From positions 10,318 to 74,317 of the forward strand of contig CAZADR010000002.1 in assembly GCA_964484005.1 (NCBI GenBank): a stretch of DNA of 64,000 nucleotides. Reading direction: 5' to 3'. The translations under genes and the position numbers were made by a program. Below the pieces are notes generated by a model. It saw nothing but the letters and a program-made list of their open reading frames with translations, had not been told where the DNA came from and searched no databases. Shown piece by piece: positions 562 through 48,727 of the stretch. Positions within the stretch are counted from its first letter, which is position 1. Each line of letters starts with the position of its first letter. The DNA is from an uncultured Candidatus Saccharibacteria bacterium. Its GTDB lineage: Bacteria > Patescibacteriota > Minisyncoccia > Phycocordibacterales > UBA9973.

Positions 562-2211
562 TTAAACCGCCTTGAATTCTACGAAGAAGGTGGAGCCTTT
601 GTCGGCGCCTTCGGACTCTACCCAGACTTTGCCTCCATGTGTTTCCACTATTAGCTTTACTGTGTAGAGCCCGTAGCCGGTGCTGTCCACATTTACTTTT
701 ACGGAGTCTTTACCTCGTCCACCTTCGGTAAATAGATTCTTTTTATCTTCTTCGGTGATGCCTACTCCAGTATCTTTGATTATGAGCCTTATCTTTCCGT
801 CTCCGTCTTCGAGATTTACAGATATTTTCCCTGCGGGAGTGTACTTGATAGAGTTTTCAATTAAATTATTTACCACTTCTTTGAGCCAAATAGAGTCTCC
901 CAAAAGATTGTAGCCCCCTTCTTTTATTTCAGATTCTAACTGCAAACCTTTTCTTTCAATAGAAACTTTTTTGTCAGAGATGGATTGCTCTACGAGGTCT
1001 CTAAAATTTAAGATTTTCATGTCATATTTAATGAGACCTTTTTCCATATTGGCGGCATTTAACACCAGGTCGACAGTTTCTATGCCCATATTATCAGAAT
1101 CCAAACCTTGTTCCGCATACTTTTTTACTTCAGGACTTATCTCACCAAAGGTTCCATCCAATAGTCCCGCAAAGATATATTTTGAGCGAGTAAATGAACC
1201 CTTCACTTTGTGGGTGACTAGGTGCACGAGGTTTTCTCTTTGTTTAATCAAGTCTTCCAAATCTAGGTTTAATTTCGCCAATTGTTCCTTCTGCTCTATT
1301 TCTTTTTTGACAGATTTAATTAAGAAGAAACCGAAAATTATTGAAGCAATAAAAGTTATGCCAGTTAATACTATATTAATAAATACTTTGACAAACAAGA
1401 ACTGGGAGCCAATAAGTAATACGAGTCCCCAAACCAAGGCCTGGGTGGCGATAAGTTTTACATTAAAGGCTTTATATTTAACAATTAAATAAGCGAGAAA
1501 ACCAACAAAGATAGGCATTCCAAAAAGACCAAATTGAGCAATGGTCCAGTTGTCTGTTAGACTCCCAATAATATTGCCATATGCGAGGCTTAGTAAAAAT
1601 AAAACTATGCCCAGGGTTATATTAAAAATTTGTCTTCTGTCTTCCTTGTTTGCTTTGAAGTATTTTTCAAAAGCAAAAATTAAAATCCATAGTACATAAA
1701 GAATTTCAATTCCATATCCATAAAGAGTGAGTGGTCCCTCTGTAACCTCTCTATAGCAGTTACTCAAGTCAAATTCAACCAAAGCTAATTTTGTTGATGC
1801 AAAAAAGAGTGTGGGTAAAAGAAAAACAGCTATACTCATTTTCTGAATCAGACTGGTGTCTTTTTTATTAATAAATACGTAGATAAAGTAAACACATGCA
1901 GCATAAATTATTGGTTCAATAATTACCAACAGGGACCAAAAGAACATTTGAAAATCAGGTTTTTCGTTTGCCCATAAAACTAAATCAGCAAAAGCCCATA
2001 ATGAAAAAGTGGTAGTTATAAAAAATAAAATCCTGTTGAGTAATGCTTTTTTGTCTTTTAGAAAAATGATTAAACCTATTAAAAAAGATGGTATTAGGGC
2101 AAAAAGGTGGGAATAAAATATAAGTGGATCAAAAACATTATTAGAAAAAATAAAAAACCTTGCTGTATCCCATTGGCATATTTCTATAAAAGATTGAATT
2201 GATGTTTCCAT
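562..2211 (-). CDS. Membrane-bound sensor histidine kinase (multi-TM N-terminus, HisKA/HATPase_c C-terminus)
   Basis: The N-terminal half is very hydrophobic with several TM helices. The C-terminus has ATP-lid motifs (DTGVGI, GGRGKD, GYGLYTV) and ends ..THGGKVWVESEG. No adjacent response regulator was seen. Confidence 0.8.
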   Translation of the reverse strand: METSIQSFIEICQWDTARFFIFSNNVFDPLIFYSHLFALIPSFLIGLIIFLKDKKALLNRILFFITTTFSLWAFADLVLWANEKPDFQMFFWSLLVIIEPIIYAACVYFIYVFINKKDTSLIQKMSIAVFLLPTLFFASTKLALVEFDLSNCYREVTEGPLTLYGYGIEILYVLWILIFAFEKYFKANKEDRRQIFNITLGIVLFLLSLAYGNIIGSLTDNWTIAQFGLFGMPIFVGFLAYLIVKYKAFNVKLIATQALVWGLVLLIGSQFLFVKVFINIVLTGITFIASIIFGFFLIKSVKKEIEQKEQLAKLNLDLEDLIKQRENLVHLVTHKVKGSFTRSKYIFAGLLDGTFGEISPEVKKYAEQGLDSDNMGIETVDLVLNAANMEKGLIKYDMKILNFRDLVEQSISDKKVSIERKGLQLESEIKEGGYNLLGDSIWLKEVVNNLIENSIKYTPAGKISVNLEDGDGKIRLIIKDTGVGITEEDKKNLFTEGGRGKDSVKVNVDSTGYGLYTVKLIVETHGGKVWVESEGADKGSTFFVEFKAV

Positions 2212-2844: not shown

Positions 2845-3474
2845 TTAATCATGCTTTATGAGAAAGCTGACATCTTTCATTATACCTCTTTTCTTGAAAA
2901 GAAGTATAAGAATTATTATTAAATCAGAAACTAACATATAAATAGGGTAGACAAGGATTGCAAAAGTAAACCTTTCTACAGCAAACATGTTTAAGCTGTC
3001 TGCAAGCCCAGTACCAAACCAAGCCCAAAAATCTTCTCCTTCTGGGCGAAGATATGATTTTTTGATTGTTGGAATTATTGCAAAAGAATCTATGGCAAGG
3101 TTTGTGACGAGAGCAATCACAGGATTGTTGAATATAATCCAAAGAAGTACGCTTGCGAATGCTCCAAAAAGACAAAGTAGGTCAGTTTTATCCTCTAAAC
3201 TTCCTTCTCCATATTTTATAGAAAGAATTGCTATGCTTAATGGACCCAAGAATTCAACATAGGGAACCCAAATAGTATTTTCAGCTCCAGAAAAATGATA
3301 ACTTAAAGCCATTACCAAACCCATAAAAGACCAAATCCACCAAGTGGCTCTGTTTGGTTTAGTATTGCCCTTTATTATTGAAATTATATAAACGATGTAG
3401 GCTAAAAAGGCGATGATGCCTGCGATGAGTCCCAGAACAACCCTTATGTCTGTAAAATCAAGATTGAATATCAC
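2845..3474 (-). CDS. Hypothetical integral membrane protein
   Basis: 209-aa ORF with several hydrophobic helices; no motif recognised. Confidence 0.45.
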   Translation of the reverse strand: MIFNLDFTDIRVVLGLIAGIIAFLAYIVYIISIIKGNTKPNRATWWIWSFMGLVMALSYHFSGAENTIWVPYVEFLGPLSIAILSIKYGEGSLEDKTDLLCLFGAFASVLLWIIFNNPVIALVTNLAIDSFAIIPTIKKSYLRPEGEDFWAWFGTGLADSLNMFAVERFTFAILVYPIYMLVSDLIIILILLFKKRGIMKDVSFLIKHD

Positions 3475-3513
3475 TGTGATATTGTAACATATTTTGATAA
3501 TTTAACAGTAAAA

Positions 3514-3622
3514 CCTTGCTTTTTAGGTTTGTTTGTGGTATACTTCCAACAAATAGCAGTTCTCTGACTTTTCAATATTCACAAAACAAACGCAACACAA
3601 AAAACATCCAAAGGAGGATGCC
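3514..3622 (+). promoter_or_regulatory. Conserved promoter plus 5-prime leader, copy A (TTGCTT-N17-TGgTATACT, long UTR ending AAGGAGGATGCCATG)
   Basis: -35 TTGCTT at 3516-3521, 17-bp spacer, extended -10 TGGTATACT at 3536-3544, SD AGGAGG 7 nt before the ATG at 3623. Near-identical copies lie at 32370-32477 and 34445-34562. Confidence 0.6.
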
Positions 3623-4405
3623 ATGAGAAAGTATTTTGTTTTCTTTGTAGTTTCACTTCTTCTGGTGGCATTCTCGATGAATGCCGACCGCCGTCGCCCC
3701 GTGCGAATCGGCTCGTCAGACTCGGTGGAGGCAATCATTGCCGTCATCTATCTGGACAAGGATGGACTTCTTGTTCAGGAAGGTGATCCTTGGCATTATT
3801 GCTGGGTGTCAATGCAGTCGATGAGGCCGTTGACCTCGGGTACGACCTTCACCTACTCGGTGCAAAAACCTGGTGCAAATGAAGGTGATTTCACCTTCAT
3901 CAGATCCAACACGGTTCAACTGCATGAGGCAGGGTTTTACACTTCGTCCAGAATATATTTCAAGGACGGGTTCTATGATACCCTTTCTGACGGAAACCGT
4001 CAGGATTGGTTGCCTGGGATCGCTGTGTTCAGGGCGGAGATCCAACCTCTCAAAGGGGTGAAGACTTCGGTCATCCATAAAATACCGGTTCGTCTCGATG
4101 AACTCAGGGTGCCTCTTGGGCCCTTACAGCAGGCCATCGTCTCAGTAGATGGTAGAAGTGTCATGCTTCTGGGAGTTTTTTCAACACCTCCTTCTGCAAT
4201 GCTTTTTCATTTTTACTCCGATGGTACATGGATGAGTAATCCCGTTGGAGTCTCTCAAAACCAGTTTGTGGTTCCAGGTGGGATGTATGGTCATGGATCT
4301 CCACTGACAGTGATGTCGGGATATCCAGATGCAGAGTGCTCTACTGTGCAGGTGGACATTCCGGATACCTCCAAGAATAAGTTGTTTCGTGAAGAAGTTG
4401 AATAG
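3623..4405 (+). CDS. Secreted hypothetical protein, GC-rich, paralog of 34563..35255
   Basis: Signal peptide MRKYFVFFVVSLLLVAFSMNA followed by DRRRPVR. Shares its N-terminus and C-terminal motif (C-S/Q-T-x-Q-V-DIP) with 34563..35255. GC content is clearly above the surroundings. Confidence 0.65.
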   Translation: MRKYFVFFVVSLLLVAFSMNADRRRPVRIGSSDSVEAIIAVIYLDKDGLLVQEGDPWHYCWVSMQSMRPLTSGTTFTYSVQKPGANEGDFTFIRSNTVQLHEAGFYTSSRIYFKDGFYDTLSDGNRQDWLPGIAVFRAEIQPLKGVKTSVIHKIPVRLDELRVPLGPLQQAIVSVDGRSVMLLGVFSTPPSAMLFHFYSDGTWMSNPVGVSQNQFVVPGGMYGHGSPLTVMSGYPDAECSTVQVDIPDTSKNKLFREEVE

Positions 4406-4428: not shown

Positions 4429-4458
4429 CAGCCCCGCGCAAGCGCGGGGCTTTTTTAT
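4429..4458 (+). terminator. Rho-independent terminator
   Basis: GCCCCGCGC-AAGC-GCGGGGC stem followed by TTTTTTATTT. Confidence 0.7.
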
Positions 4459-4517: not shown

Positions 4518-7370
4518 TTGTTGTATAATTTACAGCATATGATAACTACATTAAAAAGCAGGTTTTTATTATTAATATTTGTTTTTTCTTTTGTAACTTT
4601 TTTAGGAATTTCCGACAAGGCCAACGCTATGGTTGATTCTAGTGGAAATATTTTTTGTGCTAGAGAAAGTTATTGGGAATTAAACAAGACGGGTGCTGTT
4701 ACTGGAACTGGAGATGAGGGGAGTGGTTATACTACTTTAGTGCCACTACATTCTTCTTCGGATACTAGCTATGATACTATTAGCCCTTTTACGGCTGGCG
4801 CCACTCTCACATATCATCGTCGCTGGGTTGGGACTGAGCCAATATCACCAAGTACTTGGAATAGTTCTTGGACTACAGAAACCTGTACCACGGGTCCACT
4901 AGATGGAAATAAATGCTCTGTGAGTGTCAGTGGTGGTTTTTACCTTAATCCCGCATACAGCGGTGGAGGTCAGGCATATGATATTTATGGTGAGCCTGCA
5001 TGTATAGAAGATGGATATGCTGGTGTTGCTTATAGTTCACCAAATAGGATAAGTGCAGGATATACTGTAAATGCAACTGTTTCCGGGGTTGGGGGATCAC
5101 CTACACCTCTTTCTCAGTCAGTAGCTGCTAACGGCACCACAAAATTTACCTTAACTCCAAGTTCTTCTTATATTGTAAATAAAGATGATGTTACTAAAAA
5201 TTCTACTGGTTGTAATTTAGGAAACGAGGCAACCGCATGGTCTGGAAACGAGTACACTACTGGTACGATTAATGCTAATTGTACTTACACTTTTTCTTTT
5301 ACAGCTATTCCTGCTGTTACTGCTTCTTGTTCCGTCTCAAGTCCGGTGGCATCTGGGGTAAATCCAAGCATTACTTTTACCACAAATTCAAGTTCAAACA
5401 ATTGTTATGTTCGTAACGACAATATTGCCTTTGGTTTTTCTCCTCAACCTGGAACAGGAGTTTCTTCTTCCGGAACAGTCTATCAGCCTGGAGTTCAGAC
5501 AGCGGGCTCTCACCAAGGCTCAATATATTGTCAAAATTCAGCCAATACAGCAAATAGTGGCTGGCAATATTGTCCGTATACAGTGAGTGCACCAGCTATT
5601 CCCGCTACTCCCACAGGTCTTACCGCTACAGCAAGCTCCTGTGGAACTGGAACGATAAATGTATCTTGGAGTGCATCTGCTGGTGCAACAAGTTACACCC
5701 TTAAAGATGGAGCTACTGTTATTTATTCTGGAGCTTCTACTTCTTATTCTCATATTGGTCTAGTTGCAGGTTCTAGTCATAGTTACACTGTTTCTGCTTC
5801 AAACGCTGCGGGTTCATCAGCATATTCAGCTGCTGTTTCAAGAACTGCTCCAGCAGCTTGTGCTCCAACCGACGCTTGTGGTAATGGTAGTAGCTCTTTT
5901 CCTAGATTAACTGAACCGACAACTAATCCAACTGCTTGTAATCCAGGAGTGTATGCAAACTCTCCAGCTGATACCACCACCTTGGGCGCTCAAGCTTGGA
6001 ATTGGTCTTGTGGCACGGTCACTTCCTGTTCTGCTCCCAAATATGGCTGTAGAGTAACGACTGACTCAAATTATAGTCTTCCTCAATATGGACCAACTGG
6101 ACCAAACAACAATTATGGTTGCGCTGGTACTTGTGCAAACGGGGGAACAGATTATTCTACCTGTACACCTCCAGTTGGTATGTCTGGAACCTTGACCACT
6201 CCTAGCTGTACGATTGCTTCCGGGTCCAGCACTTGTACCACGACTGTCTCTTGGACAGTAACTAATCCTGTAGTAGTCGGCGGCTCTTCAGTCACTTCTT
6301 CATATCCTAGTGCTGGTACAGTCGTCGCTCCTCCAGTCAGTACTGGAACTGCAGATTCAGGTACAAAAACAGGTGTAACTATTCCATATAGTTCCAGGAC
6401 TTTCTATCTTTACAACAACAATGTTCAATTAAATACAGGCACAGCTAACGCTACCTGCGCTACAGGTTCAGCCTGGAACGGAACCATCTGTTATACAGCA
6501 CCCGCTCTTCCTGATTTGACAGCCGCTTCTACTACTCCTTCTACTGCTGTAAAAAATGAAGCCAAAACTTTTTCTTCAATCGTTACAAACATTGGAGCTG
6601 CAGATACTGGTGCATCTTTCTCAAACTTCTTTCAAGTGTGTAATGTAGGAGGAGGATGTGCAACTCCAACAGATCTAGCTCCTACTACCATGACAGCTTT
6701 GGCTGGTGGAGCGACCGGTACGGCCACCAAAGATTACACCTTTACCTCTGTCGGAACATTTTCTGTTCGAGCTTGTGCAGACAAGACAAACTCTGCTTCT
6801 CTTGGTGTAATTAACGAAGGGACCATGGAAGGCAACAACTGTGGAAATTGGGCTAATGTTACTGTTTCCGATACCCCAACTCCACCTTCCAATGAAGCCC
6901 CCGTCATCACCATCTGGGCTACTCCAACTTCTGGTACCGTGAATATTGTCAAACCTACTATTCTCTGGAGTGTCGACAATGATCCGACATCTTGTGCGGC
7001 AAGTGAAGACTGGTTAGGTAGTCGAAATTACAGTGGAGCTCAAACTCAAGAACCAGCCTTAAATCAAATTAAAACTTACCGTTACACATTAATCTGCTCC
7101 AATGCTTATGGTAGTGATGAAGCTACTGCTACGGTCGCAGTGTCTGGAACTGCCTCTGGAGTAAGTATTAGTGTAAATCCTACCTCCATCTATGCTGGAG
7201 ATTCAGCCACTCTCACTTGGTCAGGCGCAGGAGCTTGTACTTATAACTTTGATACTGGTTCTAATATTGTAACTCCAAATACGACCACTACTTACACTCT
7301 TACTTGTGATGGTGTATCTTCTAGTGCTACATTGATAGTGAAGAAGAAACCGATATTTATTGAGGATTAG
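4518..7370 (+). CDS. Large secreted Cys/Thr/Ser/Gly-rich surface protein (likely start 4539, MITTLKSRFLLL signal peptide)
   Basis: Signal peptide, low-complexity T/S/G/C-rich composition, and an extended -10 TGTTGTATAAT upstream. The C-terminal ~460 aa are identical to the product of 35386..38112. Confidence 0.7.
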   Translation: MLYNLQHMITTLKSRFLLLIFVFSFVTFLGISDKANAMVDSSGNIFCARESYWELNKTGAVTGTGDEGSGYTTLVPLHSSSDTSYDTISPFTAGATLTYHRRWVGTEPISPSTWNSSWTTETCTTGPLDGNKCSVSVSGGFYLNPAYSGGGQAYDIYGEPACIEDGYAGVAYSSPNRISAGYTVNATVSGVGGSPTPLSQSVAANGTTKFTLTPSSSYIVNKDDVTKNSTGCNLGNEATAWSGNEYTTGTINANCTYTFSFTAIPAVTASCSVSSPVASGVNPSITFTTNSSSNNCYVRNDNIAFGFSPQPGTGVSSSGTVYQPGVQTAGSHQGSIYCQNSANTANSGWQYCPYTVSAPAIPATPTGLTATASSCGTGTINVSWSASAGATSYTLKDGATVIYSGASTSYSHIGLVAGSSHSYTVSASNAAGSSAYSAAVSRTAPAACAPTDACGNGSSSFPRLTEPTTNPTACNPGVYANSPADTTTLGAQAWNWSCGTVTSCSAPKYGCRVTTDSNYSLPQYGPTGPNNNYGCAGTCANGGTDYSTCTPPVGMSGTLTTPSCTIASGSSTCTTTVSWTVTNPVVVGGSSVTSSYPSAGTVVAPPVSTGTADSGTKTGVTIPYSSRTFYLYNNNVQLNTGTANATCATGSAWNGTICYTAPALPDLTAASTTPSTAVKNEAKTFSSIVTNIGAADTGASFSNFFQVCNVGGGCATPTDLAPTTMTALAGGATGTATKDYTFTSVGTFSVRACADKTNSASLGVINEGTMEGNNCGNWANVTVSDTPTPPSNEAPVITIWATPTSGTVNIVKPTILWSVDNDPTSCAASEDWLGSRNYSGAQTQEPALNQIKTYRYTLICSNAYGSDEATATVAVSGTASGVSISVNPTSIYAGDSATLTWSGAGACTYNFDTGSNIVTPNTTTTYTLTCDGVSSSATLIVKKKPIFIED

Positions 7371-13639: not shown

Positions 13640-14437
13640 TTATCTTTTTAATTTTTCTAAAATTAGGTCGGAATTCGAATTTTCCTTAATTTCTGTATCC
13701 ACCAGAAGAGCTGGTTTTCTCTCTCTGTCCTCGATAGGCCGTTCTCTTCCTTCATTAAAAGCTGTCAGTATTTTTTCTTTTTCATGCGGTTCAAAAGTGT
13801 TACCAGTAAATCCTTTTGAATTTCTTAAGTAAACAAAAAATTTATTGAATAATTCCACTTCGTTCAATAGCGTTTTAAGTGTTGTTTCTATGTTTCTATA
13901 TGCTTCATCATGGCTACTTTTTTTAGTATATCGAGCAGAAATACCCAACTTCTTTAATTCTTCATATCTATATTCTAAGCTTAGAAGAGAAAGTTCGTAG
14001 GGAGTAGAAAGCACAACAAGATTAATATTATAATCTTGCCCTTTTAGCATTTTTGCAGTTGAGAGAGGAGCTTCTTTTGTTCTCATTGTTCCTTCTACTA
14101 TCATATTTAAGCCACGAATAGCACACTCTTGAATTAAAGATTCAATCCAAAAATTACAAGCTGGTTGGGTCATGTCAGCAGCTTCTTGGTTGTTTTCTAT
14201 TAAATATGAATAATATTTTGGATGGTATGATCTTAGGTCATCTCCGTTTATAAAAACTGCGTTTGTGTTTAATTTCAATAATTCTCTAACTAGAGTACTC
14301 TTTCCACTGCCTGGTTGACCACCCAAAATAAAAGCATCTTTTACTATTTGGGGTGAGATGTTTCCAATTATTTGAGGGATTATTTTTTCTCTCAGAATAA
14401 TATTTATTTCTTCTTCTGATAGGTCAAATTTATTCAT
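13640..14437 (-). CDS. Zeta-toxin-family P-loop kinase
   Basis: Walker A LGGQPGSGKSTL, characteristic of zeta/PezT UDP-GlcNAc kinases; 265 aa. Confidence 0.6.
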   Translation of the reverse strand: MNKFDLSEEEINIILREKIIPQIIGNISPQIVKDAFILGGQPGSGKSTLVRELLKLNTNAVFINGDDLRSYHPKYYSYLIENNQEAADMTQPACNFWIESLIQECAIRGLNMIVEGTMRTKEAPLSTAKMLKGQDYNINLVVLSTPYELSLLSLEYRYEELKKLGISARYTKKSSHDEAYRNIETTLKTLLNEVELFNKFFVYLRNSKGFTGNTFEPHEKEKILTAFNEGRERPIEDRERKPALLVDTEIKENSNSDLILEKLKR

Positions 14438-14637: not shown

Positions 14638-15825
14638 TTAACTTATCTTCTCTATCTTTTCCCAAGGCAAATTGTCTTTACCAAAGTGGCCGTAGGCGGA
14701 AGTTTGGGAGAAGATTGGTGCGCGGAGATTTAGTTTTTCGATAATTGCGAGAGGTTTGAAATCAAAATTCTTGCGAACTATTTCCGCCAAGTTTTCTCCT
14801 TTTTCATTTATGGCTTCTATCATTAGTGGCTCTGCCATACCGATAGCGTAAGCGACTGCTACAAGTACTTCTTTGCCGTAGCCGGAAGCGACTAAATTTT
14901 TAGCGACGAATCGCGCCATGTAGGCGCCAGAGCGGTCTACTTTGGTGGCGTCTTTACCAGAGAAACATCCGCCTCCATGTGGAATGAGTCCGCCATAAGT
15001 ATCTACCATTAATTTTCTACCAGTGAGGCCTGTGTCTGCCTCAAAGCCACCTTGGATAAATTGGCCAGTAGGGTTTACTAAAATTTTTACAGTTTTCTTT
15101 TCCTCCTCAGAGAGTAGGGGATAGATTATTTTTTCCGTGATTTCTTTTTTAATTTCTTCGTGGGCTACCTCCGCAGAATGCTGAGTGCTAACTAAAACAG
15201 TATTTAATTTCCCATCAGTATAAGTGACTTGAGTTTTGCCGTCTGGTCGAAGCCAGGGGATTGTCGGCAAAATATTTCCGTCAGGGAGAATATCCTCGCT
15301 CTCACCACGATAATTTTCTGCTGAAAATTCTCTCTGTCCGTCGTCGACACTCCTACCAAGGGTTCGCTCGAGGACATTCTCCCTTTTAGAATTTACTCGC
15401 ACTTCTTCAAGTCTCTTTGCGAGTTTGTGGGCGAGGACGATGCCTTTTGGTAAAAATTCTGGAGTCTCGTCTGTGGCAAAGCCGTACATTATTCCTTGGT
15501 CTCCGGCTCCGCCGGTGTCCACTCCCATGGCGATGTCGGGGGATTGGTTTACTATGTGTGAGACAATTTCCAATTCATCCGTGTAGCCTATATTTTTATA
15601 AATTTCACGAGCTATTTTCTCGTGGTCTACTTTACCCGTAGAAGTGACTTCACCTCCTATTACTAGCTTGCCGTGCCCGCCGAAAGTCTCTACGGCTACT
15701 CGGCTCTTTGAATCTATTTTTAAATAAGCATCTAGGATGGCGTCTGAAATCTGATCACAAATTTTGTCTGGATGGCCAGAGGTAACGCTTTCAACAGTGT
15801 AATTGTTGTTGTGTTTGTAAAACAT
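14638..15825 (-). CDS. metK: S-adenosylmethionine synthetase
   Basis: GHPDKICDQISDAILDA, GGGCFSGKDATKVDRSGAY and other MetK motifs; 395 aa. Confidence 0.9.
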   Translation of the reverse strand: MFYKHNNNYTVESVTSGHPDKICDQISDAILDAYLKIDSKSRVAVETFGGHGKLVIGGEVTSTGKVDHEKIAREIYKNIGYTDELEIVSHIVNQSPDIAMGVDTGGAGDQGIMYGFATDETPEFLPKGIVLAHKLAKRLEEVRVNSKRENVLERTLGRSVDDGQREFSAENYRGESEDILPDGNILPTIPWLRPDGKTQVTYTDGKLNTVLVSTQHSAEVAHEEIKKEITEKIIYPLLSEEEKKTVKILVNPTGQFIQGGFEADTGLTGRKLMVDTYGGLIPHGGGCFSGKDATKVDRSGAYMARFVAKNLVASGYGKEVLVAVAYAIGMAEPLMIEAINEKGENLAEIVRKNFDFKPLAIIEKLNLRAPIFSQTSAYGHFGKDNLPWEKIEKIS

Positions 15826-19842: not shown

Positions 19843-19847
19843 GTTAT

Positions 19848-20163
19848 CCCCCACACCTTTCATTTTATAACTTCAGATCATATTATTTTTTATGTATTAT
19901 TTATATATTCTAAAAAGCCTTAAAGACGAAAAATTATATGTTGGTTCGACCAATGATCTGAAGCGAAGACTTTCGGAACACAACAATGGACTTAATCGTT
20001 CAACAAAAGCAAGGCGTCCATTTGAACTTAGATATTATGAAGCTTGTACTAATGAAAGTGATGCCCGAACTAGAGAATATAACCTCAAGAAAGATGGAAA
20101 AGCACTTGGGCAGCTTAAAAGACGAATTTCCGAAAGTCTTAAATAAAATAAAAGGTGTGGGGG
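19848..20163. mobile_element. Miniature GIY-YIG element: 13-bp terminal inverted repeats CCCCCACACCTTT / AAAGGTGTGGGGG flanked by direct TTAT
   Basis: IRs at 19848-19860 and 20151-20163 enclose the 84-aa GIY-YIG ORF. A near-identical copy lies at 32023-32340. Confidence 0.5.
19892..20146 (+). CDS. Small GIY-YIG nuclease-family protein
   Basis: YLYIL..LYVGSTNDLKRRLSEHN matches the GIY-YIG (URI) domain; 84 aa. Confidence 0.75.
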   Translation: MYYLYILKSLKDEKLYVGSTNDLKRRLSEHNNGLNRSTKARRPFELRYYEACTNESDARTREYNLKKDGKALGQLKRRISESLK

Positions 20164-20181
20164 TTATCCACAGAAGGGTTG

Positions 20182-28456: not shown

Positions 28457-28495
28457 AAATGATTTTTAACGAACATTGTGAGTATAAAAATCTTT

Positions 28496-28558
28496 ACCCC
28501 GTTAAATATAAAATCTTTAGATTTTTAATTTTGCTTTGCAAAATTTATTTAATGGGGT
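28496..28558. repeat. Short palindromic element (ACCCCGTTAAATA ... TATTTAATGGGGT)
   Basis: 13-bp imperfect inverted repeat around a 36-bp spacer that contains AATCTTTAGATTT; member of a family (see 17752-17889, 29830-29894, 29945-30231). Confidence 0.5.
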
Positions 28559-29793: not shown

Positions 29794-29829
29794 AATGATT
29801 TTTAAGGAATGTAATGACTATAAAAATCA

Positions 29830-29894
29830 TTACCCTGTGAAATGAAATCTTTCAGATTTCAGCTTTTTCGAAGAAAAAGTTATTTCACTGGGGT
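29830..29894. repeat. Short palindromic element (TACCCTGTGAAAT ... ATTTCACTGGGG) with internal hairpin
   Basis: Terminal IRs of 11-12 bp with an inner AGCTTTTTCGAAGAAAAAGT hairpin; same family as 28496-28558 and 17752-17889. Confidence 0.5.
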
Positions 29895-29942: not shown

Positions 29943-30221
29943 TTACCCTGTTAAATATGATTTGAGCCGATTTCGCAAAAACTGTTTTCCGTATGTTGTC
30001 TTTAGATATTCTTCACGATGCATTGCATCATGTTTATCTAAACAAGCTTCGGAATAAATCAGTTCTAATGGCCTTCGATCTTTTGTTGAACTAACTTGAC
30101 CTTTGCAATGTTGCTCAAATCTAGATTTCAAATCATTCGTATATCCGACATATAGTTTTTTGTCTTTTTGGGACTTTAAAACATATATGTAGTAAAACTT
30201 TTTTATTTGATTTGAAATCAT
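29943..30221 (-). CDS. Small GIY-YIG nuclease-family protein
   Basis: YYIYVLKS..KLYVGYTNDLKSRFEQH is a GIY-YIG domain; 92 aa; divergent paralog of 19892..20146. Confidence 0.7.
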   Translation of the reverse strand: MISNQIKKFYYIYVLKSQKDKKLYVGYTNDLKSRFEQHCKGQVSSTKDRRPLELIYSEACLDKHDAMHREEYLKTTYGKQFLRNRLKSYLTG

Positions 30222-31372: not shown

Positions 31373-31606
31373 CTAACGAGAAATCCAGGTATTTGTCGGA
31401 ATACCAGATTGTAATATTATACCTTTCATTGTTCTTGGCTTAATAGACAAACTACCGTGCCTGGGAACACAAACTTGTTTCATGATTTTATTTATATGAC
31501 CCACATAATAGTAGTGACTTCCTTTTATATAATTTAAACGAAAGTTGTGTTCTTTTAGAAAAGTTTCTACATCTCTAAATGTCCAATTGAGAATACCTCT
31601 TGGCAT
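31373..31606 (-). CDS. hicA: HicA-family mRNA interferase toxin
   Basis: FLKEHNFRLNYIKGSHYYY...VPRHG..L...MKGIILQSGI matches the HicA pattern (KGSH motif); 77 aa. Confidence 0.6.
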   Translation of the reverse strand: MPRGILNWTFRDVETFLKEHNFRLNYIKGSHYYYVGHINKIMKQVCVPRHGSLSIKPRTMKGIILQSGIPTNTWISR

Positions 31607-31612
31607 ATGTTG

Positions 31613-31939: not shown

Positions 31940-32022
31940 ATAAATATTTTAAATGCTAAATATGCTTGTTCAAATACAAAAATTACCCCCAAACCCCATA
32001 TTTTGCTGGTTTTAAAGGTTAT

Positions 32023-32340
32023 CCCCCACACCTTTCGTTTTATACCCTTAAATCATATAATGGCTGTTATGTATTACATGTATGTTCTAAAAAGTCTTAA
32101 AGATGAGAAATTATATATTGGTTCTACTGATGATTTAAGGCGAAGACTTTCGGAACACAACAAGGGACTTAATCGTTCAACTAAAGCAAGACGTCCATTT
32201 GAACTTCGTTACTATGAGGCTTGTGCTGACGAACGTGATGCTAGAACAAGGGAATATAATTTAAAAAAAGATGGAAAAGCGCTTGGGCAACTTAAACGAA
32301 GAATCTCCGAAAGTCTTAAATAAAACAAAAGGTGTGGGGG
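32023..32340. mobile_element. Miniature GIY-YIG element (second copy of 19848..20163 type)
   Basis: IR CCCCCACACCTTT at 32023-32035 and AAAGGTGTGGGGG at 32328-32340, both with TTAT immediately outside; encloses a near-identical GIY-YIG ORF. Confidence 0.5.
32060..32323 (+). CDS. Small GIY-YIG nuclease-family protein
   Basis: Product nearly identical to 19892..20146 (MYYMYVLKSLKDEKLYIGSTDDLRRRLSEHN...); the track ORF 31907 start is too early and the real start is 32060 or 32069. Confidence 0.7.
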   Translation: MAVMYYMYVLKSLKDEKLYIGSTDDLRRRLSEHNKGLNRSTKARRPFELRYYEACADERDARTREYNLKKDGKALGQLKRRISESLK

Positions 32341-32369
32341 TTATTCACAGGATGTTCACAGTTCACTTG

Positions 32370-32477
32370 CCTTGCTTTTTGAGTTTATTTGTGGTATACT
32401 TTAGGTGATAGAGTAGCTCTTCGACAACTTTTCACTAAACAAACAATAAACAAAAATGACATTCAAAGGAGGATGCC
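32370..32477 (+). promoter_or_regulatory. Conserved promoter plus 5-prime leader, copy B
   Basis: TTGCTT (32372-32377), 17-bp spacer, TGGTATACT (32392-32400), leader ending AAAGGAGGATGCCATG at the rSAM start. Confidence 0.6.
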
Positions 32478-33575
32478 ATGAAAGTTGTTCCGACCACTGC
32501 TTGGCTAACAGTAAATAGATCCTGCAATTTTCGTTGTAGCTGGTGTTACGCAAAAAGTGATGTATTTGACAACAAAGATACATTAACAATGGAGCTCGCA
32601 TTAAGACTCCTGACAATTATTAAAGAAATGGGAATCAGTCACATTACATTGATTGGTGGTGAGCCCACGCTTTGGAAATATTTAATGGATTTTAATACCA
32701 ATTGTCGTGAAATGGGTATTAAATCCTCGTTGGTAACAAATGCTTATCGTTTTGGTGATGATAATTTTTGGAGTCAGTATATCAAAAACCCGAACGACAA
32801 AGTAAGTGTTTCCCTTAAGGCTTTTGATAATAAGTCAGCAATGGAATTTGTCGGAATAAATAACTTTGAATTAATGACAACTGGAATAAAGAGAGCCATT
32901 TCCGAGTTTAATAGTGGGGTTTCTTTTCTTTGTAATTCATTTGCTAATGGTAACCTAATGTCATTGGCGAGAGTTGCTCACGAATGTGGAGCTCGTAGCA
33001 TAGCTATTAGTCCGTGCACACCATCTTTTTCCAAAGAAGGTGTCGATATTGTGGGGATGCTTGAATCAGGAGAATTAGTTGCAAGTTTCACCTCTGAATA
33101 CGAAGAGATGAGTAATCTTTTTGGAAATAGATTAACTTTTGCAATAAAAACTCCGCTATGTATTTGGCCGCGGAATTTTATTGAAAAGCTGATAACAAGA
33201 AAACAGCTACGAGCAACATGCCAACTCCAACATCGATCAGGGATTATATTTGATCCAAAGGGTCAAGTGTCAGCTTGTAATAGTTTAGCCAATTTTCCGA
33301 TTGGAATAATTGACAAAAACTACAATAATGCTGAATCCCTGATTCAAATTTTGAATAGTGATAATGTGGTTAGAGTTTATAATCACATTAATTCTTATCC
33401 TTCGGAAGTCTGTATTAATTGCCCCGACAACTCAATTTGTCGTGGCGGTTGTCCTTTAATGTGGTCAGTCTATGACCCTAAAAAACATATTCCAGGTTGG
33501 AATATGGGAGAAAAACAGAAAGGAGGTGATAAAAATGGACAAGCTGCTGGAGCTCATCTCGGTAACCGGGATTGA
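32478..33575 (+). CDS. Radical SAM enzyme with C-terminal SPASM domain (candidate peptide maturase)
   Basis: CNFRCSWCY (CX3CX2C) at residues 16-24 and C-terminal CINCPDNSICRGGCP (CX2CX5CX3C SPASM signature); 365 aa. Confidence 0.8.
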   Translation: MKVVPTTAWLTVNRSCNFRCSWCYAKSDVFDNKDTLTMELALRLLTIIKEMGISHITLIGGEPTLWKYLMDFNTNCREMGIKSSLVTNAYRFGDDNFWSQYIKNPNDKVSVSLKAFDNKSAMEFVGINNFELMTTGIKRAISEFNSGVSFLCNSFANGNLMSLARVAHECGARSIAISPCTPSFSKEGVDIVGMLESGELVASFTSEYEEMSNLFGNRLTFAIKTPLCIWPRNFIEKLITRKQLRATCQLQHRSGIIFDPKGQVSACNSLANFPIGIIDKNYNNAESLIQILNSDNVVRVYNHINSYPSEVCINCPDNSICRGGCPLMWSVYDPKKHIPGWNMGEKQKGGDKNGQAAGAHLGNRD

Positions 33576-33687: not shown

Positions 33688-33738
33688 GTAGAATCGTCCC
33701 CCATAACAACTTATCGTTATGGGGGACATTTATATAAA

Positions 33739-34380
33739 ATGAATAAAATAAAATTTTCAATTAAATATTCAAAAGAACTTGAGATTCAACGGGTTTTGTC
33801 TACTAAGAAAAAACTTAAATGGTATTTTGATAATGGTTATAATTTAAACAATTCGGCTTTACCTAAATATATAAGCATAAAAGAATTGGATAAAGCTCCC
33901 AAGGGTGAGCTAATTAAATACATAAATGAAGAATATACTCCAAAGCTTTTTCAATTAAACAAAAAAGAAATCAGTTTTCTTTTACCAGATTACTTGAATA
34001 AATTAGAAGATTATTTTTCTAAAATAAACGTAAAACCAATTTTAAACATAAGAATCATACTCACAAAATACGGAACTGCTGGAAGTTATATTGTTCCAAA
34101 TATTATTGTGATTAATGTTTCAAATTTTTTTAGTATTGGATTAATAAGAAATATTTTACATGAAATAATTCATTTGCATATTCAAGATTTAATAAATAAA
34201 TATGAAATAAAACAATGGGAGAAAGAAATAATCGTCGATAGTGTTTTTGAAAAGTTTTCAGCTTCTCTTTTTAAGAGACAAAATTATCCAATAAATGCAT
34301 TTGAAATTCAAAAAATCTTTAATGAAAGTTATCCAAATATTGAGTTAATTATTTCAAGAATTTTAAAAATAAGACTGTAA
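33739..34380 (+). CDS. Hypothetical protein with HExxH motif (candidate metallopeptidase)
   Basis: NILHEIIHLH contains HEIIH; 213 aa; directly downstream of the peptide ORF. Confidence 0.4.
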   Translation: MNKIKFSIKYSKELEIQRVLSTKKKLKWYFDNGYNLNNSALPKYISIKELDKAPKGELIKYINEEYTPKLFQLNKKEISFLLPDYLNKLEDYFSKINVKPILNIRIILTKYGTAGSYIVPNIIVINVSNFFSIGLIRNILHEIIHLHIQDLINKYEIKQWEKEIIVDSVFEKFSASLFKRQNYPINAFEIQKIFNESYPNIELIISRILKIRL

Positions 34381-34444
34381 GTATATTCTCCTAAAAACTT
34401 AAAAAATCAAGGTTTTTCAGGCTTTTCCGCCAGCTATACACACT

Positions 34445-34562
34445 TTGCTTGACTTGCTTTTTGAGTTTGTTTGTGGTATATTTACCCCAAAGAAGCACAG
34501 TTCTCTGACTTTTCAATATTCACTAAACGAACACAACACAAATTCATCCGAAGGAGGATGCC
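34445..34562 (+). promoter_or_regulatory. Conserved promoter plus 5-prime leader, copy C
   Basis: TTGCTT (34454-34459), 17-bp spacer, TGGTATATT (34474-34482); CAGTTCTCTGACTTTTCAATATTCAC..AAC.CAACAC block shared with copy A; ends GAAGGAGGATGCCATG. Confidence 0.6.
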
Positions 34563-35255
34563 ATGCGCAAATTCGTAATGTATTTTCTTGTCGCAGTATT
34601 TCTGTGCTCGGCATTCTCTCTGAGTGCCGACAGACGACGTCCCGCGCGTAGCGGAATGCAACCGACATTTCTCACCAAGCAGACTTCTCTGTCTGTGGTG
34701 GGACCCAACGAGAAAGGGGAATACAGTGCGCCTTTTGTGGCCTGGTTCCCGGTTTCAAATGGAACAACGGTAAGTAGTTATACCGTGGATGTTAATGGTA
34801 ACAAAACTCCAATTGTGGGCGCGTCTTTCACTGTCACCGCGGAAAATGCCGATCACGGTTGGGCAATGCAACTCTGGGGACCTTTTACTGGCGGATATGC
34901 GCCAATTCCCACGAGTAGTGGTATTGTTGCTTTCCGCGTGGAATTCACGGGAAATTTCCAGACTTACAGTGTCAACGCAAGGGTTCCGGATGGAACACGT
35001 GCTACTGCTGTGGTAGATGTCTACCCCGACGGGAAGCTCTTCCTCAAGCAGTCTTACGCTGTTCTTCCGGTCGCTAGCCTCAACGGTCGAGGCCATCCTG
35101 TGGTAAATGGTTGGATCACTCCGACTCAGTATTATACTGGATCGGATGTGGTTGTTGCTGTTTGCTCCGGATTTCCGGACTCGCAGTGTCAGACCCAGGT
35201 GGTCGACATTCCGGCTCCTCAGACCAACGCAGGAAAAACGTTTAGTTTCGAATAA
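34563..35255 (+). CDS. Secreted hypothetical protein, GC-rich, paralog of 3623..4405
   Basis: Signal peptide MRKFVMYFLVAVFLCSAFSLSA followed by DRRRPAR; C-terminal GFPDSQCQTQVVDIPAP matches GYPDAECSTVQVDIPDT of the paralog. Confidence 0.65.
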   Translation: MRKFVMYFLVAVFLCSAFSLSADRRRPARSGMQPTFLTKQTSLSVVGPNEKGEYSAPFVAWFPVSNGTTVSSYTVDVNGNKTPIVGASFTVTAENADHGWAMQLWGPFTGGYAPIPTSSGIVAFRVEFTGNFQTYSVNARVPDGTRATAVVDVYPDGKLFLKQSYAVLPVASLNGRGHPVVNGWITPTQYYTGSDVVVAVCSGFPDSQCQTQVVDIPAPQTNAGKTFSFE

Positions 35256-35290: not shown

Positions 35291-35320
35291 TTGCCCCGCA
35301 CTTGTGCGGGGCTTTTTTAT
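35291..35320 (+). terminator. Rho-independent terminator
   Basis: GCCCCGCA-CTTG-TGCGGGGC followed by TTTTTTATTT; homologous to the 4429-4458 terminator. Confidence 0.7.
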
Positions 35321-35385: not shown

Positions 35386-38112
35386 ATGAAATCTATTATA
35401 AAAGGCAGATTTTTATTATTAATTTTTGTTTTATCATTTTTATCATTATTTGGTTTCTCTAGTCAGGCTCAGGCATTGACCATGGCACCAGATTTTAGTG
35501 TGACTTCTTTTACTTTATCTGCAGATCAAAACACTATTACTTTTACAGCAGATGGAAATTCTGGATATTTATATTCTAGTTGTGGTGCTGATGTTTTAGA
35601 GCCTCATTATGAAGGTGGTCCTTATACTTATACTCCTTATGCTATGTCTAGCGGAACTATTTCTGCAGGTTCTGTCTCAGGGACAATATCTTCTGGGGAA
35701 ATTGCAAAGTTAACTAATGGACAAACGGGCACACCTTGCGATGACCCAGCCAGGTCTTCCCCAACAGGCAATGTTGTTCCCGGTACTCCAGGAACTTTTA
35801 CAGTAACAAACAAAACCCTTAATGTTTCTAGTTTGGCCAATGGTTCATACACTCTTTCTGTTTCACTTTGTGCGACTGCCGGAGTATGTAGTGTTGCTAC
35901 TAGGGCTTTTACTATAAATAATAGAGTAACTAGTTTTAATGTTACAGCAACTGCCGGTACTGGTGGTTCCGTTTCTTCTCCTTGTTCTGTGGCGAGCGGA
36001 AATACTTCCGCAACATGTAGTAATATTAATGCTTTGTCTGGGTATTCTTTAACTCAAGCTGTAGAATTTACTCCTTCTAATTGTGCCACTGGGGGCTCTT
36101 TTTCTGGAAATGCATATACTACAGGAAATGTTAATGTTAATAATTGTAATGTAAAATTTAACTTTGCTCCTGTAGGCACAGTTTCCGGCTATCATGACGG
36201 AGCTTCAGGCACAGTTGCTTCTACTTCCTGTAACGCAAATGGCTGGGCAGCTTTTTCAACACTACCAGGAACAGACTTAACAATAGGAATAATAAGTGAT
36301 GGGGTAGCAGTGTACTATGGTCCTGCTGGGGAGTATAGAGGAGACCTGACAGGACAGTGCACAAGTGGAACTTGTGCATATAATGTGGACTTGAGTAGTC
36401 GTATTTCTTCTGGAGTAAATCACTCAATCACTGTTCAAGCTCAAAATCCTAATACTTCGGCTTGGGTGACTCTAGGTGGAAGTCCAAAGACATTAAATTG
36501 TACAGCAGTACCTCCACCACCTTGTGGAAATGGTGCCAATAATCCTCCAACTTGTACTACCTGTACTTCACCCCTTGTTTGGAACGGTAGCTCGTGTGTA
36601 GCACCTTCAACCGATGCTTGTGGTACTTATAGCGGTATTACCCCTAGACTCACTGAACCAACCACAAATCCTACTGCATGTAACCCAGGCACATATGCAA
36701 ACTCTCCAGCGGACACCGCTACTCTCGGTGCTCAAGCTTGGAATTGGTCTTGTGGCACGGTCACTTCCTGTTCTGCTCCCAAATATGGCTGTAGAGTAAC
36801 GACTGACTCAAATTATAGTCTTCCTCAATATGGACCAACTGGACCAAACAACAATTATGGTTGCGCTGGTACTTGTGCAAACGGGGGAACAGATTATTCT
36901 ACCTGTACACCTCCAGTTGGTATGTCTGGAACCTTGACCACTCCTAGCTGTACGATTGCTTCCGGGTCCAGCACTTGTACCACGACTGTCTCTTGGACAG
37001 TAACTAATCCTGTAGTAGTCGGCGGCTCTTCAGTCACTTCTTCATATCCTAGTGCTGGTACAGTCGTCGCTCCTCCAGTCAGTACTGGAACTGCAGATTC
37101 AGGTACAAAAACAGGTGTAACTATTCCATATAGTTCCAGGACTTTCTATCTTTACAACAACAATGTTCAATTAAATACAGGCACAGCTAACGCTACCTGC
37201 GCTACAGGTTCAGCCTGGAACGGAACCATCTGTTATACAGCACCCGCTCTTCCTGATTTGACAGCCGCTTCTACTACTCCTTCTACTGCTGTAAAAAATG
37301 AAGCCAAAACTTTTTCTTCAATCGTTACAAACATTGGAGCTGCAGATACTGGTGCATCTTTCTCAAACTTCTTTCAAGTGTGTAATGTAGGAGGAGGATG
37401 TGCAACTCCAACAGATCTAGCTCCTACTACCATGACAGCTTTGGCTGGTGGAGCGACCGGTACGGCCACCAAAGATTACACCTTTACCTCTGTCGGAACA
37501 TTTTCTGTTCGAGCTTGTGCAGACAAGACAAACTCTGCTTCTCTTGGTGTAATTAACGAAGGGACCATGGAAGGCAACAACTGTGGAAATTGGGCTAATG
37601 TTACTGTTTCCGATACCCCAACTCCACCTTCCAATGAAGCCCCCGTCATCACCATCTGGGCTACTCCAACTTCTGGTACCGTGAATATTGTCAAACCTAC
37701 TATTCTCTGGAGTGTCGACAATGATCCGACATCTTGTGCGGCAAGTGAAGACTGGTTAGGTAGTCGAAATTACAGTGGAGCTCAAACTCAAGAACCAGCC
37801 TTAAATCAAATTAAAACTTACCGTTACACATTAATCTGCTCCAATGCTTATGGTAGTGATGAAGCTACTGCTACGGTCGCAGTGTCTGGAACTGCCTCTG
37901 GAGTAAGTATTAGTGTAAATCCTACCTCCATCTATGCTGGAGATTCAGCCACTCTCACTTGGTCAGGCGCAGGAGCTTGTACTTATAACTTTGATACTGG
38001 TTCTAATATTGTAACTCCAAATACGACCACTACTTACACTCTTACTTGTGATGGTGTATCTTCTAGTGCTACATTGATAGTGAAGAAGAAACCGATATTT
38101 ATTGAGGATTAG
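35386..38112 (+). CDS. Large secreted Cys/Thr/Ser/Gly-rich surface protein (paralog of 4518..7370)
   Basis: Signal peptide MKSIIKGRFLLLIFVLSFLSLFGFSSQAQA, divergent N-terminal ~450 aa, C-terminal ~460 aa identical to the paralog; extended -10 TGCTGTATAAT upstream. Confidence 0.7.
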   Translation: MKSIIKGRFLLLIFVLSFLSLFGFSSQAQALTMAPDFSVTSFTLSADQNTITFTADGNSGYLYSSCGADVLEPHYEGGPYTYTPYAMSSGTISAGSVSGTISSGEIAKLTNGQTGTPCDDPARSSPTGNVVPGTPGTFTVTNKTLNVSSLANGSYTLSVSLCATAGVCSVATRAFTINNRVTSFNVTATAGTGGSVSSPCSVASGNTSATCSNINALSGYSLTQAVEFTPSNCATGGSFSGNAYTTGNVNVNNCNVKFNFAPVGTVSGYHDGASGTVASTSCNANGWAAFSTLPGTDLTIGIISDGVAVYYGPAGEYRGDLTGQCTSGTCAYNVDLSSRISSGVNHSITVQAQNPNTSAWVTLGGSPKTLNCTAVPPPPCGNGANNPPTCTTCTSPLVWNGSSCVAPSTDACGTYSGITPRLTEPTTNPTACNPGTYANSPADTATLGAQAWNWSCGTVTSCSAPKYGCRVTTDSNYSLPQYGPTGPNNNYGCAGTCANGGTDYSTCTPPVGMSGTLTTPSCTIASGSSTCTTTVSWTVTNPVVVGGSSVTSSYPSAGTVVAPPVSTGTADSGTKTGVTIPYSSRTFYLYNNNVQLNTGTANATCATGSAWNGTICYTAPALPDLTAASTTPSTAVKNEAKTFSSIVTNIGAADTGASFSNFFQVCNVGGGCATPTDLAPTTMTALAGGATGTATKDYTFTSVGTFSVRACADKTNSASLGVINEGTMEGNNCGNWANVTVSDTPTPPSNEAPVITIWATPTSGTVNIVKPTILWSVDNDPTSCAASEDWLGSRNYSGAQTQEPALNQIKTYRYTLICSNAYGSDEATATVAVSGTASGVSISVNPTSIYAGDSATLTWSGAGACTYNFDTGSNIVTPNTTTTYTLTCDGVSSSATLIVKKKPIFIED

Positions 38113-48722: not shown

Positions 48723-48727
48723 ACACA

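Follow-up and report, generated by a model that had tools for sequence, protein, structure and literature searches.

In the vlp and vsp lipoprotein families of Mycoplasma, a conserved 5' expression region and signal peptide are followed by hypervariable mature parts. The capture, or recruitment, of a promoter by a moving gene island is a general phenomenon. In leaders controlled by CsrA/RsmA, such as that of B. subtilis hag, a GGA motif is held in the loop of a hairpin that overlaps the Shine–Dalgarno (SD) sequence. CPR genomes, in addition, often carry DGRs.

The locus described here resembles the first three of these systems, as well as the radical SAM (rSAM)/SPASM RiPP operons and the extended -10 promoters, in part only. 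Reading and alignment reveal a unit of ~110 bases, made up of a promoter, a long untranslated leader and a strong ribosome-binding site (RBS), which is present in three copies (A, B, and C) in the 64-kb window, that is, the whole stretch of DNA analysed. This cassette is a real, non-random and selectively maintained cis element of an ordinary kind, spread by duplication and capture. Its phylogenetic range is narrow, and it gives no sign of a novel RNA class or of a novel regulatory mechanism. The transcription start sites (TSS), promoter strength, high expression and co-expression discussed below are predictions made from the sequence.

Anatomy of the cassette

The original prediction had placed three copies of ~110 bp in the window, and all three are found at those positions, where chance predicts none:

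3514..3625, + strand, cassette copy A: -35 TTGCTT at 3516-3521; extended -10 TGGTATACT at 3536-3544; predicted TSS at ~3551-3552; leader of ~71 nt; SD AAGGAGG at 3611-3617; ATG at 3623
32368..32480, + strand, cassette copy B: -35 at 32372-32377; TGGTATACT at 32392-32400; leader of ~70 nt, of a different allele class; SD at 32466-32472; ATG at 32478
34450..34565, + strand, cassette copy C: -35 at 34454-34459; TGGTATATT at 34474-34482; leader of ~73 nt; SD at 34551-34557; ATG at 34563

On alignment, the common unit reads CTTGCTTTTT..G.TT.TTTGTGGTATA(C/T)TT, followed by a leader of ~70 nt and then by CAT(C/T)C(A/G)AAGGAGGATGCCATG. The 30-nt promoter pattern TTGCTTTTTNNGTTTNTTTGTGGTATAYTT has exactly three matches in the 64 kb (at 3516, 32372, and 34454), with 0.00 expected from 100 shuffles, and the 15-nt junction AAGGAGGATGCCATG likewise has exactly three at up to two mismatches (3611, 32466, and 34551), with 0.07 expected. 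Between them, A and C match the block CAGTTCTCTGACTTTTCAATATTCAC.AAAC.AAC.CAACAC exactly, and B matches it more loosely. An nhmmer profile built from six copies of the cassette finds no fourth copy in the window.

The promoter takes the form TTGCTT-N14-TGGTATACT, which is equivalent to TTGCTT-N17-TATACT, and the TGTGG that precedes the -10 hexamer makes it an extended -10 promoter (TRTGn). TGG is joined to TATACT in A and B, as well as in the related loci L008, L010, L011, and L026 introduced below, and to TATATT in C; the TG at -15/-14 is thus present throughout. The original description of the promoter stands as regards TTGCTT-N17 and the three copies; it is amended to an extended -10 element with TATACT, or with TATATT in C. 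The -10 hexamer agrees with the consensus at 5/6 positions and the weak -35 element, TTGCTT, at 3/6, with a spacing of 17 bp. It is because of this -35 element that a consensus scanner did not list the promoter.

The leader, whose length of 70–73 nt assumes a start ~7 nt after the -10 element, is poor in G (6–11%) and rich in A and C (64–73% together). At its end lies the SD AAGGAGG, whose GGAGG is separated from the ATG by 5 nt and which would pair over 6 nt or more with the 3' end of the 16S rRNA. Its duplex with ACCUCCUUA is worth -11.6 to -11.7 kcal/mol (-11.6 in A), which is among the four strongest of 54 genes.

A leadered minority among apparently leaderless genes

A strong SD is found in 5 of the 54 probable genes of the window: those behind the three cassette copies, the precursor peptide gene described below, and the gene at 45926. 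In ten genes, on the other hand, the motif TGnTANNNT stops exactly 6 nt short of the start codon, and in four more it stops 7–9 nt short; it seldom falls at other distances, so that the majority of transcription units here appear to lack a leader. L026, L009, and L012 show the same pattern, and in each of them the strongest SD of the locus again belongs to the small-protein gene. Judged by these signals, the leadered, SD-driven cassette is exceptional among genes that nearly all lack an SD and appear leaderless.

The window contains no rRNA. One study (PMC9297842) reports loss of the anti-SD only in a subgroup of Parcubacteria. Within the limited literature searched, no paper on leaderless versus SD usage in Saccharibacteria was found, and passages of a study of Saccharibacteria type IV pili (PMC11623550) contain no mention of the small/large gene pair described in the next section or of its leader.

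The paralogous genes behind copies A and C

Copies A and C precede the following features:

3623..4405, + strand, small secreted protein A: 260 aa; signal peptide, then ADRRRP; elevated GC3 of 0.50
4430..4451, + strand, intrinsic terminator after small gene A: hairpin and T-run, conserved with 35293-35312
4539..7370, + strand, large CARDB/PKD-like surface protein A: own promoter, with TATAAT ending at 4529, 9 nt before the ATG
34563..35255, + strand, small secreted protein C: 230 aa; GC3 of 0.48
35293..35312, + strand, intrinsic terminator after small gene C
35386..38112, + strand, large CARDB-like surface protein C: looks leaderless (TGTATAAT-N8-ATG)

The original prediction spoke of three unrelated operons. 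This holds for B only, as A and C are paralogous gene sets, each consisting of a small secreted protein, a terminator and a large CARDB-like protein. Small gene C heads a conserved locus of small gene, large CARDB protein, PilB, PilC and pilins; the PilB, PilC and pilin-like genes follow the large gene in C and not in A.

Conservation between A and C is mosaic. The cassettes are 83% identical, and identity in 60-nt windows is 60–82% over the leader and the signal-peptide region. The mature small proteins share 26% of their amino acids. At the terminator and where the large gene begins, identity is ~70%. The large proteins diverge over their N-terminal halves, and the final ~1375 nt of large gene A (~5996-7370) are 100% identical to 36738-38112. 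From this identical tract, gene conversion between A and C is clearly active.

The terminators after the small genes and the hairpin after the peptide gene delimit short transcription units. As a terminator stands directly after each small gene, the cassette in A and C most likely drives a monocistronic mRNA rather than the whole surface-protein/pilus operon.

The small-protein genes have a GC3 of 0.46–0.64, against 0.21–0.47 for their neighbors, in every lineage. Their family is tiny: clustering at 90% identity yields 8 clusters, and at 50% there are 29 representatives in a set of 1.84 billion proteins. The predicted structure of the small protein is a beta-sandwich of low confidence (pLDDT 62), for which a Foldseek search against the PDB returns generic Ig-like matches only (TM ~0.26), giving no lead on function. 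As for a DGR-type diversification of the small or large proteins, neither a reverse transcriptase nor a template/variable repeat pair was seen.

The cassette in related genomes

The original prediction had called for a search for further copies in related genomes, and such copies are found. At the orthologous, C-type small-protein gene of L008, L010, and L011, whose products are 63–69% identical to C, the cassette stands in a locus that runs from NusA or a methyltransferase through the small gene, the large gene and PilB to PilC. L026, a 360-kb JGI contig, carries the orthologue of small protein A (62% aa identity), also with the cassette, in the synteny HK-SET-209aa...GNAT. All four keep the promoter and AAGGAGGATGCCATG. 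In the more distant L009 and L012-14 (51–57% aa identity), a diverged homologous version occupies the same position (nhmmer E ~1e-5), with the same architecture of TATGGTATACT, long leader and strong SD. Across paralogues and strains, the mature small protein is 26–69% identical in amino acids, and synonymous sites are saturated.

A scan of one genome per species with the promoter pattern recovered a contig (L007) of the Candidatus Saccharibacteria MAG ERP113451_co3_83 that is identical to copy C and comes from the same organism as the window; a match in an alphaproteobacterial MAG from the same scan is promoter-like by chance. With a looser pattern, metagenome contigs gave three promoter-only matches, the downstream sequence of which is unrelated; L026 was missed by this pattern because its spacer is 1 nt shorter. 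Viral contigs gave 0 matches to the cassette promoter, and pattern scans of a fragmentary public MAG (which holds copy C), JGI metagenomes and viral contigs yielded no further copies. In ~250 kb of related DNA, no copy was found ahead of any other gene; copies that precede something other than a small-protein gene are limited to B and to the identical duplicates of B that other contigs of the same organism carry (L001-L005).

Selection on the promoter and the RBS

Conservation within the cassette was tabulated over seven copies (A, B, C, L008, L010, L011, and L026):

Invariant columns, promoter: 25/34
Invariant columns, SD junction: 15/23
Invariant columns, leader body: 17/67

The neutral background is given by four-fold-degenerate sites of the flanking genes, which are mostly 45–67% identical between the window and L008, L010, or L026: 0.55–0.58 for NusA and PPase (L008), 0.47 for PilB (L010), and, against L026, 0.45–0.67 for HK, GNAT, the 209-aa protein and the methyltransferase, with 0.33 for SET, from 21 sites only. 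The small-protein genes' own four-fold sites reach 0.30–0.41. Upstream of the cassette, the 80 nt of A and L026 are 49% identical in a global alignment, which amounts to no detectable similarity. Against this background of ~50%, the promoter and the junction are largely invariant, and the promoter and RBS are therefore under purifying selection. The original claim of a shared cis-acting unit of promoter, 5' UTR and RBS is thus borne out, the unit being more conserved than neutral sites.

The leader body behaves differently. B is 85–94% identical to the other copies in the promoter and 77–95% in the junction, and only ~50% in the leader body. One class of leaders, {A, L011, C, L008}, is 75–90% identical internally, while L010, L026, and B each share only ~50% identity with the rest. 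On these alignments the leader body appears conserved only inside that one class, apart from two short blocks shared across allele classes: AGYTCnnYGA, close to the 5' end, and, midway along, TCAC(T/A)AAAC. The promoter spacer, in turn, is nearly invariant (16/17 between B and C).

Two comparisons mark recombination. L008 and L010 are 97–100% identical upstream of and through the promoter, and 48–61% in the leader; L011 joins an A-like leader and signal peptide (91–93%) to a C-like mature protein (67% aa). Together, they place recombination breakpoints within or beside the cassette.

Copy B and the capture of the cassette by a RiPP island

Copy B and its surroundings comprise:

32319..32367, + strand, upstream part of the B/C tandem duplication unit: includes GGTTATTCACAGG, common to the orthologous upstream regions of L008, L010, and L011
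32331-32345, within 32319..32367, right inverted repeat of a GIY-YIG element
32478..33575, + strand, radical SAM/SPASM peptide maturase: 365 aa
33535..33687, + strand, precursor peptide: 50 aa, Cys/Asp-rich (MDKLLELISVTGIERSDVGRELFLYSGDCDCSPDTDDCSNPNDCDCDCAP); own strong SD; overlaps the 3' end of the rSAM gene
33696..33727, + strand, strong hairpin after the precursor gene: 12 pairs; probable terminator or processing site
33739..34380, + strand, 213-aa protein, function not assigned: third gene of the island; adjoins rSAM orthologues in other genomes
34401..34449, + strand, upstream part of the duplication unit, copy C: diverged duplicate of 32319-32367 (71% over 83 nt)

The maturase matches PF04055 Radical_SAM with 59.7 bits and SPASM TIGR04085 with 33 bits (cut-off 27), and combines a CxxxCxxC motif and a SPASM domain with an adjacent Cys-rich precursor, as rSAM/SPASM RiPP systems do. 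It reaches no curated subfamily; the PapB-type ranthipeptide maturase model NF047865 scores 38.8 bits against a cut-off of 340. The precursor has a conserved leader motif, LISVTGI(E/Q)R, and homologous peptides in L021 and L019.

A direct-repeat search shows that a unit of ~165 bp is duplicated on either side of the island (32319-32480 and 34401-34565). Orthologues of the rSAM protein are found at 77% (L021/22), 75% (L015/16), 67% (L017/18), and 66% (L019/20) aa identity; the genes of these four lineages have unrelated, mostly shorter upstream regions and differing genomic neighbors. Conversely, no rSAM gene lies between the NusA or methyltransferase gene and the small gene in the orthologous loci of the relatives. 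As the rSAM orthologues have other upstream regions, B is a lineage-specific capture. From -75 to -38, the upstream sequence of B is 0.66–0.68 identical to that of L008, L010, and L011, and that of C 0.58. The simplest history is that the cassette is native to the small-protein gene, that the island of rSAM, peptide and 213-aa protein genes landed at the start codon, and that the ~165-bp unit was duplicated. Campbell-type integration via a cassette copy, or tandem duplication followed by gene replacement, are possible routes.

RNA structure in the leader

The original prediction had proposed an RNA element in the 70–80 nt UTR, an idea that the computational search does not sustain. Rfam gives 0 matches at the gathering score over the whole window, and at E<=1 over 32300-34600 it gives sub-threshold hits only, none of them in the leaders of B and C. 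Fold energies of all six close leaders are indistinguishable from dinucleotide shuffles (z from -0.8 to +0.6), the RNAalifold consensus is worth -0.05 kcal/mol, two pairs being predicted without any compensatory change, and the leader contains no ORF. All seven close copies can form a weak 5-bp hairpin, CAUYC-loop-GGAUG, which brackets the SD, and a one-sided C-to-U change in three of them keeps a G-U pair; the SD itself fixes the 3' arm. The energy required to open the RBS, compared with shuffled leaders and leaders of genome composition, is mixed, with A and L011 lower than random and B higher. Selection of the leader for an open RBS, as a candidate explanation, is set aside, as this test gave it no consistent sign.

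Competing explanations and the preferred reading

How the three copies came to share these signals can be read in several ways. That the 5' UTR holds a structured cis-regulatory RNA (riboswitch, thermometer or attenuator) is scarcely credible and already largely refuted: the SD-bracketing hairpin that 7/7 close copies can form, with its G-U pair kept in three, is weak and owes its 3' arm to the SD anyway, and it is set against the lack of any Rfam family, z-score signal, compensatory change or leader ORF, and against a leader with 6–11% G, which permits little structure and whose body is the least conserved segment. A true regulon, in which a trans-acting factor on the cassette co-regulates the RiPP operon and the two secreted-protein genes, deserves more attention, although we consider it unlikely. 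Such a factor might be a DNA-binding protein that recognizes the -35/-10 spacer or AGYTCnnYGA at +8..+20, or else an RNA-binding protein or sRNA that targets the A/C-rich leader. The seven copies differ very little in the spacer despite ~50% identity at four-fold sites, the blocks AGYTCnnYGA and TCACWAAAC are retained in leader classes that otherwise diverge (in part also in L009 and L012), and a long leader, exceptional in a mostly leaderless genome, would offer a platform for control. However, the copies have no palindrome or direct repeat in common, no candidate regulator is identified, no other gene in the ~250 kb of related DNA was found to carry a copy, and conservation of promoter plus RBS is equally expected of an unregulated strong cassette. 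A near-palindrome upstream of the -35 element in L008, L010, and L011, TTCACAGGGTGTGGA, was rejected as the common operator: A and C lack it, and B has only a degenerate form. Within the 64 kb, the regulon would have one non-paralogous target, the rSAM gene. Of the single regulon originally proposed, the shared signals therefore stand, and their presence before the rSAM operon and the two secreted-protein genes makes co-expression a reasonable inference; control by a specific factor is not supported, no common operator having been found. In a related and still less likely proposal, the few leadered SD transcripts (those of two abundant hypervariable secreted proteins beside the type IV pilus locus and of the RiPP operon) would form a separate translational class, with output controlled via the leader or the SD, for example by an RNA-binding factor on AGYTCnnYGA/TCACWAAAC or by shifts between 30S-dependent and 70S initiation; if true, it would couple peptide production to surface remodelling during episymbiosis.

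The 5' block of promoter, leader and signal peptide might be kept, along with conserved blocks downstream, mainly as homology for shuffling hypervariable segments of surface proteins between cassettes and strains, in the style of antigenic variation, with copy B as a by-product. The mosaic conservation of A and C, the hybrid L011 and the abrupt divergence of L008 and L010 within the leader all agree with this, but it does not explain why the rSAM operon has a near-unchanged promoter and junction around a diverged leader body; moreover, the invariant positions are not evenly spread, coinciding instead with promoter and RBS elements, and no silent cassettes or recombinase are found nearby. We regard it as very unlikely. 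A phase-variation switch finds no sign in copies A-C, where the longest runs are T5 and A6 and no flanking inverted repeats are seen; the systematic repeat search was of direct repeats only. It is least probable, together with the structured RNA, that the similarity is a neutral relic of recent duplication or gene conversion, without selective maintenance. Gene conversion between A and C is clearly active over ~1375 nt, and other promoter-proximal duplications exist (upstream of NusA and PPase, and in two identical 27-nt promoter regions of L026). Such a relic is already contradicted by the uneven divergence of B across promoter, junction and leader and by the conservation across genomes: the same promoter and junction are present in genomes with ~50% identity at four-fold sites, where the 80 nt upstream of the cassette in A and L026 have lost detectable similarity. 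Copies in four relatives likewise dispose of a pure recent duplication with no other copies, by which the original prediction could have been refuted.

The reading that we prefer, and hold to be probable, is that a high-output cassette native to a fast-evolving secreted protein was duplicated with A and C and co-opted by the RiPP island, the three units being transcribed and translated in parallel. The cassette would simply be a strong start for transcription plus translation: a sigma-70-type extended -10 promoter (TRTGn-TATACT, with a weak -35), an unstructured, A/C-rich and G-poor UTR of ~70 nt, and a near-perfect Shine–Dalgarno sequence, AAAGGAGG, 5 nt before the ATG. Its native site would be ahead of the small fast-evolving secreted protein (a beta-sandwich in a low-confidence model), the gene of which heads a surface-protein/type IV pilus locus in one Saccharibacteria clade. 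The number of copies would have two reasons: an old paralogy of the small/large gene set, represented by A and C, and the insertion of a mobile RiPP island of three genes precisely at the start codon that follows the ancestral copy. The ~165-bp tandem duplicate would keep the small gene expressed after this insertion. As the other mRNAs are nearly all leaderless and SD-less, the three cassette units would be co-expressed at a high level. Several observations fit the strong-expression model less well: a plain promoter does not need a nearly invariant spacer, which could be a protein-binding site; the AGYTCnnYGA and TCAC(T/A)AAAC blocks are left unexplained; the -35 element matches the consensus at 3/6 positions only; and the RBS-opening test gives no consistent sign of selection on the leader.

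If the preferred reading is correct, the family marked by the cassette is probably among the most strongly expressed in this uncultivated Saccharibacteria clade; it is a tiny, clade-restricted family of hypervariable secreted proteins that heads a pilus/surface-protein locus. The co-option of the same signals by the RiPP island yields a co-expression hypothesis that metatranscriptomes can test. More generally, the distinction between an SD-led minority and a leaderless majority would be useful for gene calling and for the design of expression tools in the Saccharibacteria, which are now genetically tractable.

Comparison with known systems

The likeness to CsrA/RsmA leaders lies in the AAGGA in the loop of a CAUCC-AAAGGA-GGAUG hairpin that overlaps the SD in all close copies. 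Here, however, the SD-proximal GGA cluster is the only one, with no second GGA upstream in the leaders of copies A-C, and the SD itself accounts for the motif equally well; csrA was not seen among the window genes scanned. In its TGTGG-TATACT, the cassette resembles the extended -10 sigma-70 promoters with the TRTGn -16 region of Gram-positive bacteria. Elsewhere in this genome the extended -10 element lies 6–9 nt before the start codon, whereas the cassette adds a leader of ~70 nt.

The cargo of copy B resembles the rSAM/SPASM RiPP operons (sactipeptide/ranthipeptide, e.g., PapB) in its rSAM and SPASM domains and in its adjacent precursor. This likeness, recognized here on sequence grounds, concerns the cargo gene and not the repeated cassette. 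With the Mycoplasma vlp and vsp families, A and C share a conserved promoter, UTR and signal peptide, a hypervariable mature protein and mosaic alleles; the present set differs in that it has two paralogues only, and in that one cassette copy drives an unrelated enzyme operon. Finally, as in other cases of promoter capture by a horizontally moving island, the island sits in a different context in each lineage, and a resident promoter, leader and RBS have been fused to it at the start codon. Two features are particular to this case: the island meets the cassette precisely at the ATG, and duplication of the resident cassette has left each of the two genes with a copy.

Initiation Mode and Duplicated Upstream Blocks

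Strong Shine-Dalgarno (SD) sequences are found in only 5 of the 54 genes of the window, and most of its first genes look leaderless. In 10 genes, the end of the extended -10 motif (TGnTANNNT) stands exactly 6 nt upstream of the start codon; in four further genes, the distance is 7–9 nt. Example regions are:
38175-38193
35369-35388
48712-48730
2845-3500, minus strand

The same leaderless pattern, with few strong SD sequences, is seen in three related loci (L026, L009, and L012). The only other leadered, SD-bearing gene of the window (45926-46582; 218 aa, no family) has an upstream region (45838-45928) with TTGACA-N17-TATGGT, an A/C-rich leader of ~45 nt, and GAAAGGAG; it is no copy of the promoter–leader cassette.

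The H+-PPase and NusA genes share a block immediately upstream of their start codons:
28457-28510, minus strand, H+-PPase
29794-29850, minus strand, NusA

This block (~55 nt, 82% identical), which contains a -10 (TATAGT/TATACT) and a leader lacking an SD, is a second duplicated promoter-proximal block; it is not shared by the PPase upstream region of the related locus L008. In L026, an identical 27-nt sequence, TCTTAGATTTGGTATAATCGGAACATG, lies upstream of two different genes, one Asp/Glu racemase-like and the other encoding a histidine phosphatase (~14078-14107 and ~15242-15271), and promoter duplication therefore seems to be common in this clade.

Inserted Genes and Probable Gene Conversion

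GIY-YIG and HicA/HicB-like genes lie at the following positions:
19843-20168, short GIY-YIG nuclease gene
32018-32345, short GIY-YIG nuclease gene
29943-30221, minus strand, short GIY-YIG nuclease gene
31373-31939, minus strand, HicA toxin gene and 108-aa HicB-like partner

The GIY-YIG genes are 86% identical to one another and have inverted repeats (GTTATCCCCCACACC ... GGTGTGGGGGTTATY) on either side, an arrangement resembling that of small mobile units. Motifs of the TGTGG(GGG)ATAAC type, which resemble DnaA boxes and are similar to the GIY-YIG repeats, occur upstream of the cassette in the relatives L009, L012, and L013. The HicA/HicB-like pair is located a short distance upstream of copy B (the cassette copy preceding the rSAM island), with a methyltransferase gene on one side and a GIY-YIG element on the other. 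The relative L011 lacks both genes, and its methyltransferase gene directly adjoins the cassette; the pair therefore belongs to the inserted material.

Over their 3' ~1375 nt (5996-7370 and 36738-38112), the two genes for large CARDB-like surface proteins are 100% identical, whereas their 5' halves are strongly divergent. This suggests that the paralogues recently underwent gene conversion; an assembly collapse is a possible alternative.

Coding Features

In every lineage examined, GC3 is 0.46–0.64 in the small secreted-protein genes (3623-4405, 34563-35255, and orthologues in L008, L010, L011, L012, and L009) versus 0.21–0.47 in their neighbors. Both G-ending and C-ending codons are enriched; the cause may be a codon bias linked to expression or a constraint of another kind.

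A His_Phos_1 (histidine-phosphatase) domain appears to be inserted into the following gene, where it occupies residues 506–669 between two tRNA-synt_1 stretches:
57267-60773, class I aminoacyl-tRNA synthetase, 1168 aa

Three rSAM islands encode precursor peptides:
33535-33687, window
1935-2087, L021
7203-7355, L019

All three peptides carry the motif (K)LLELISVTGI(E/Q)R at the N terminus, and their common core, GDCDCSPD.DDCSNPNDCD..., is rich in Cys and Asp. Across CPR phyla, the rSAM family of the islands is widespread, but it reached none of the curated RiPP subfamilies.
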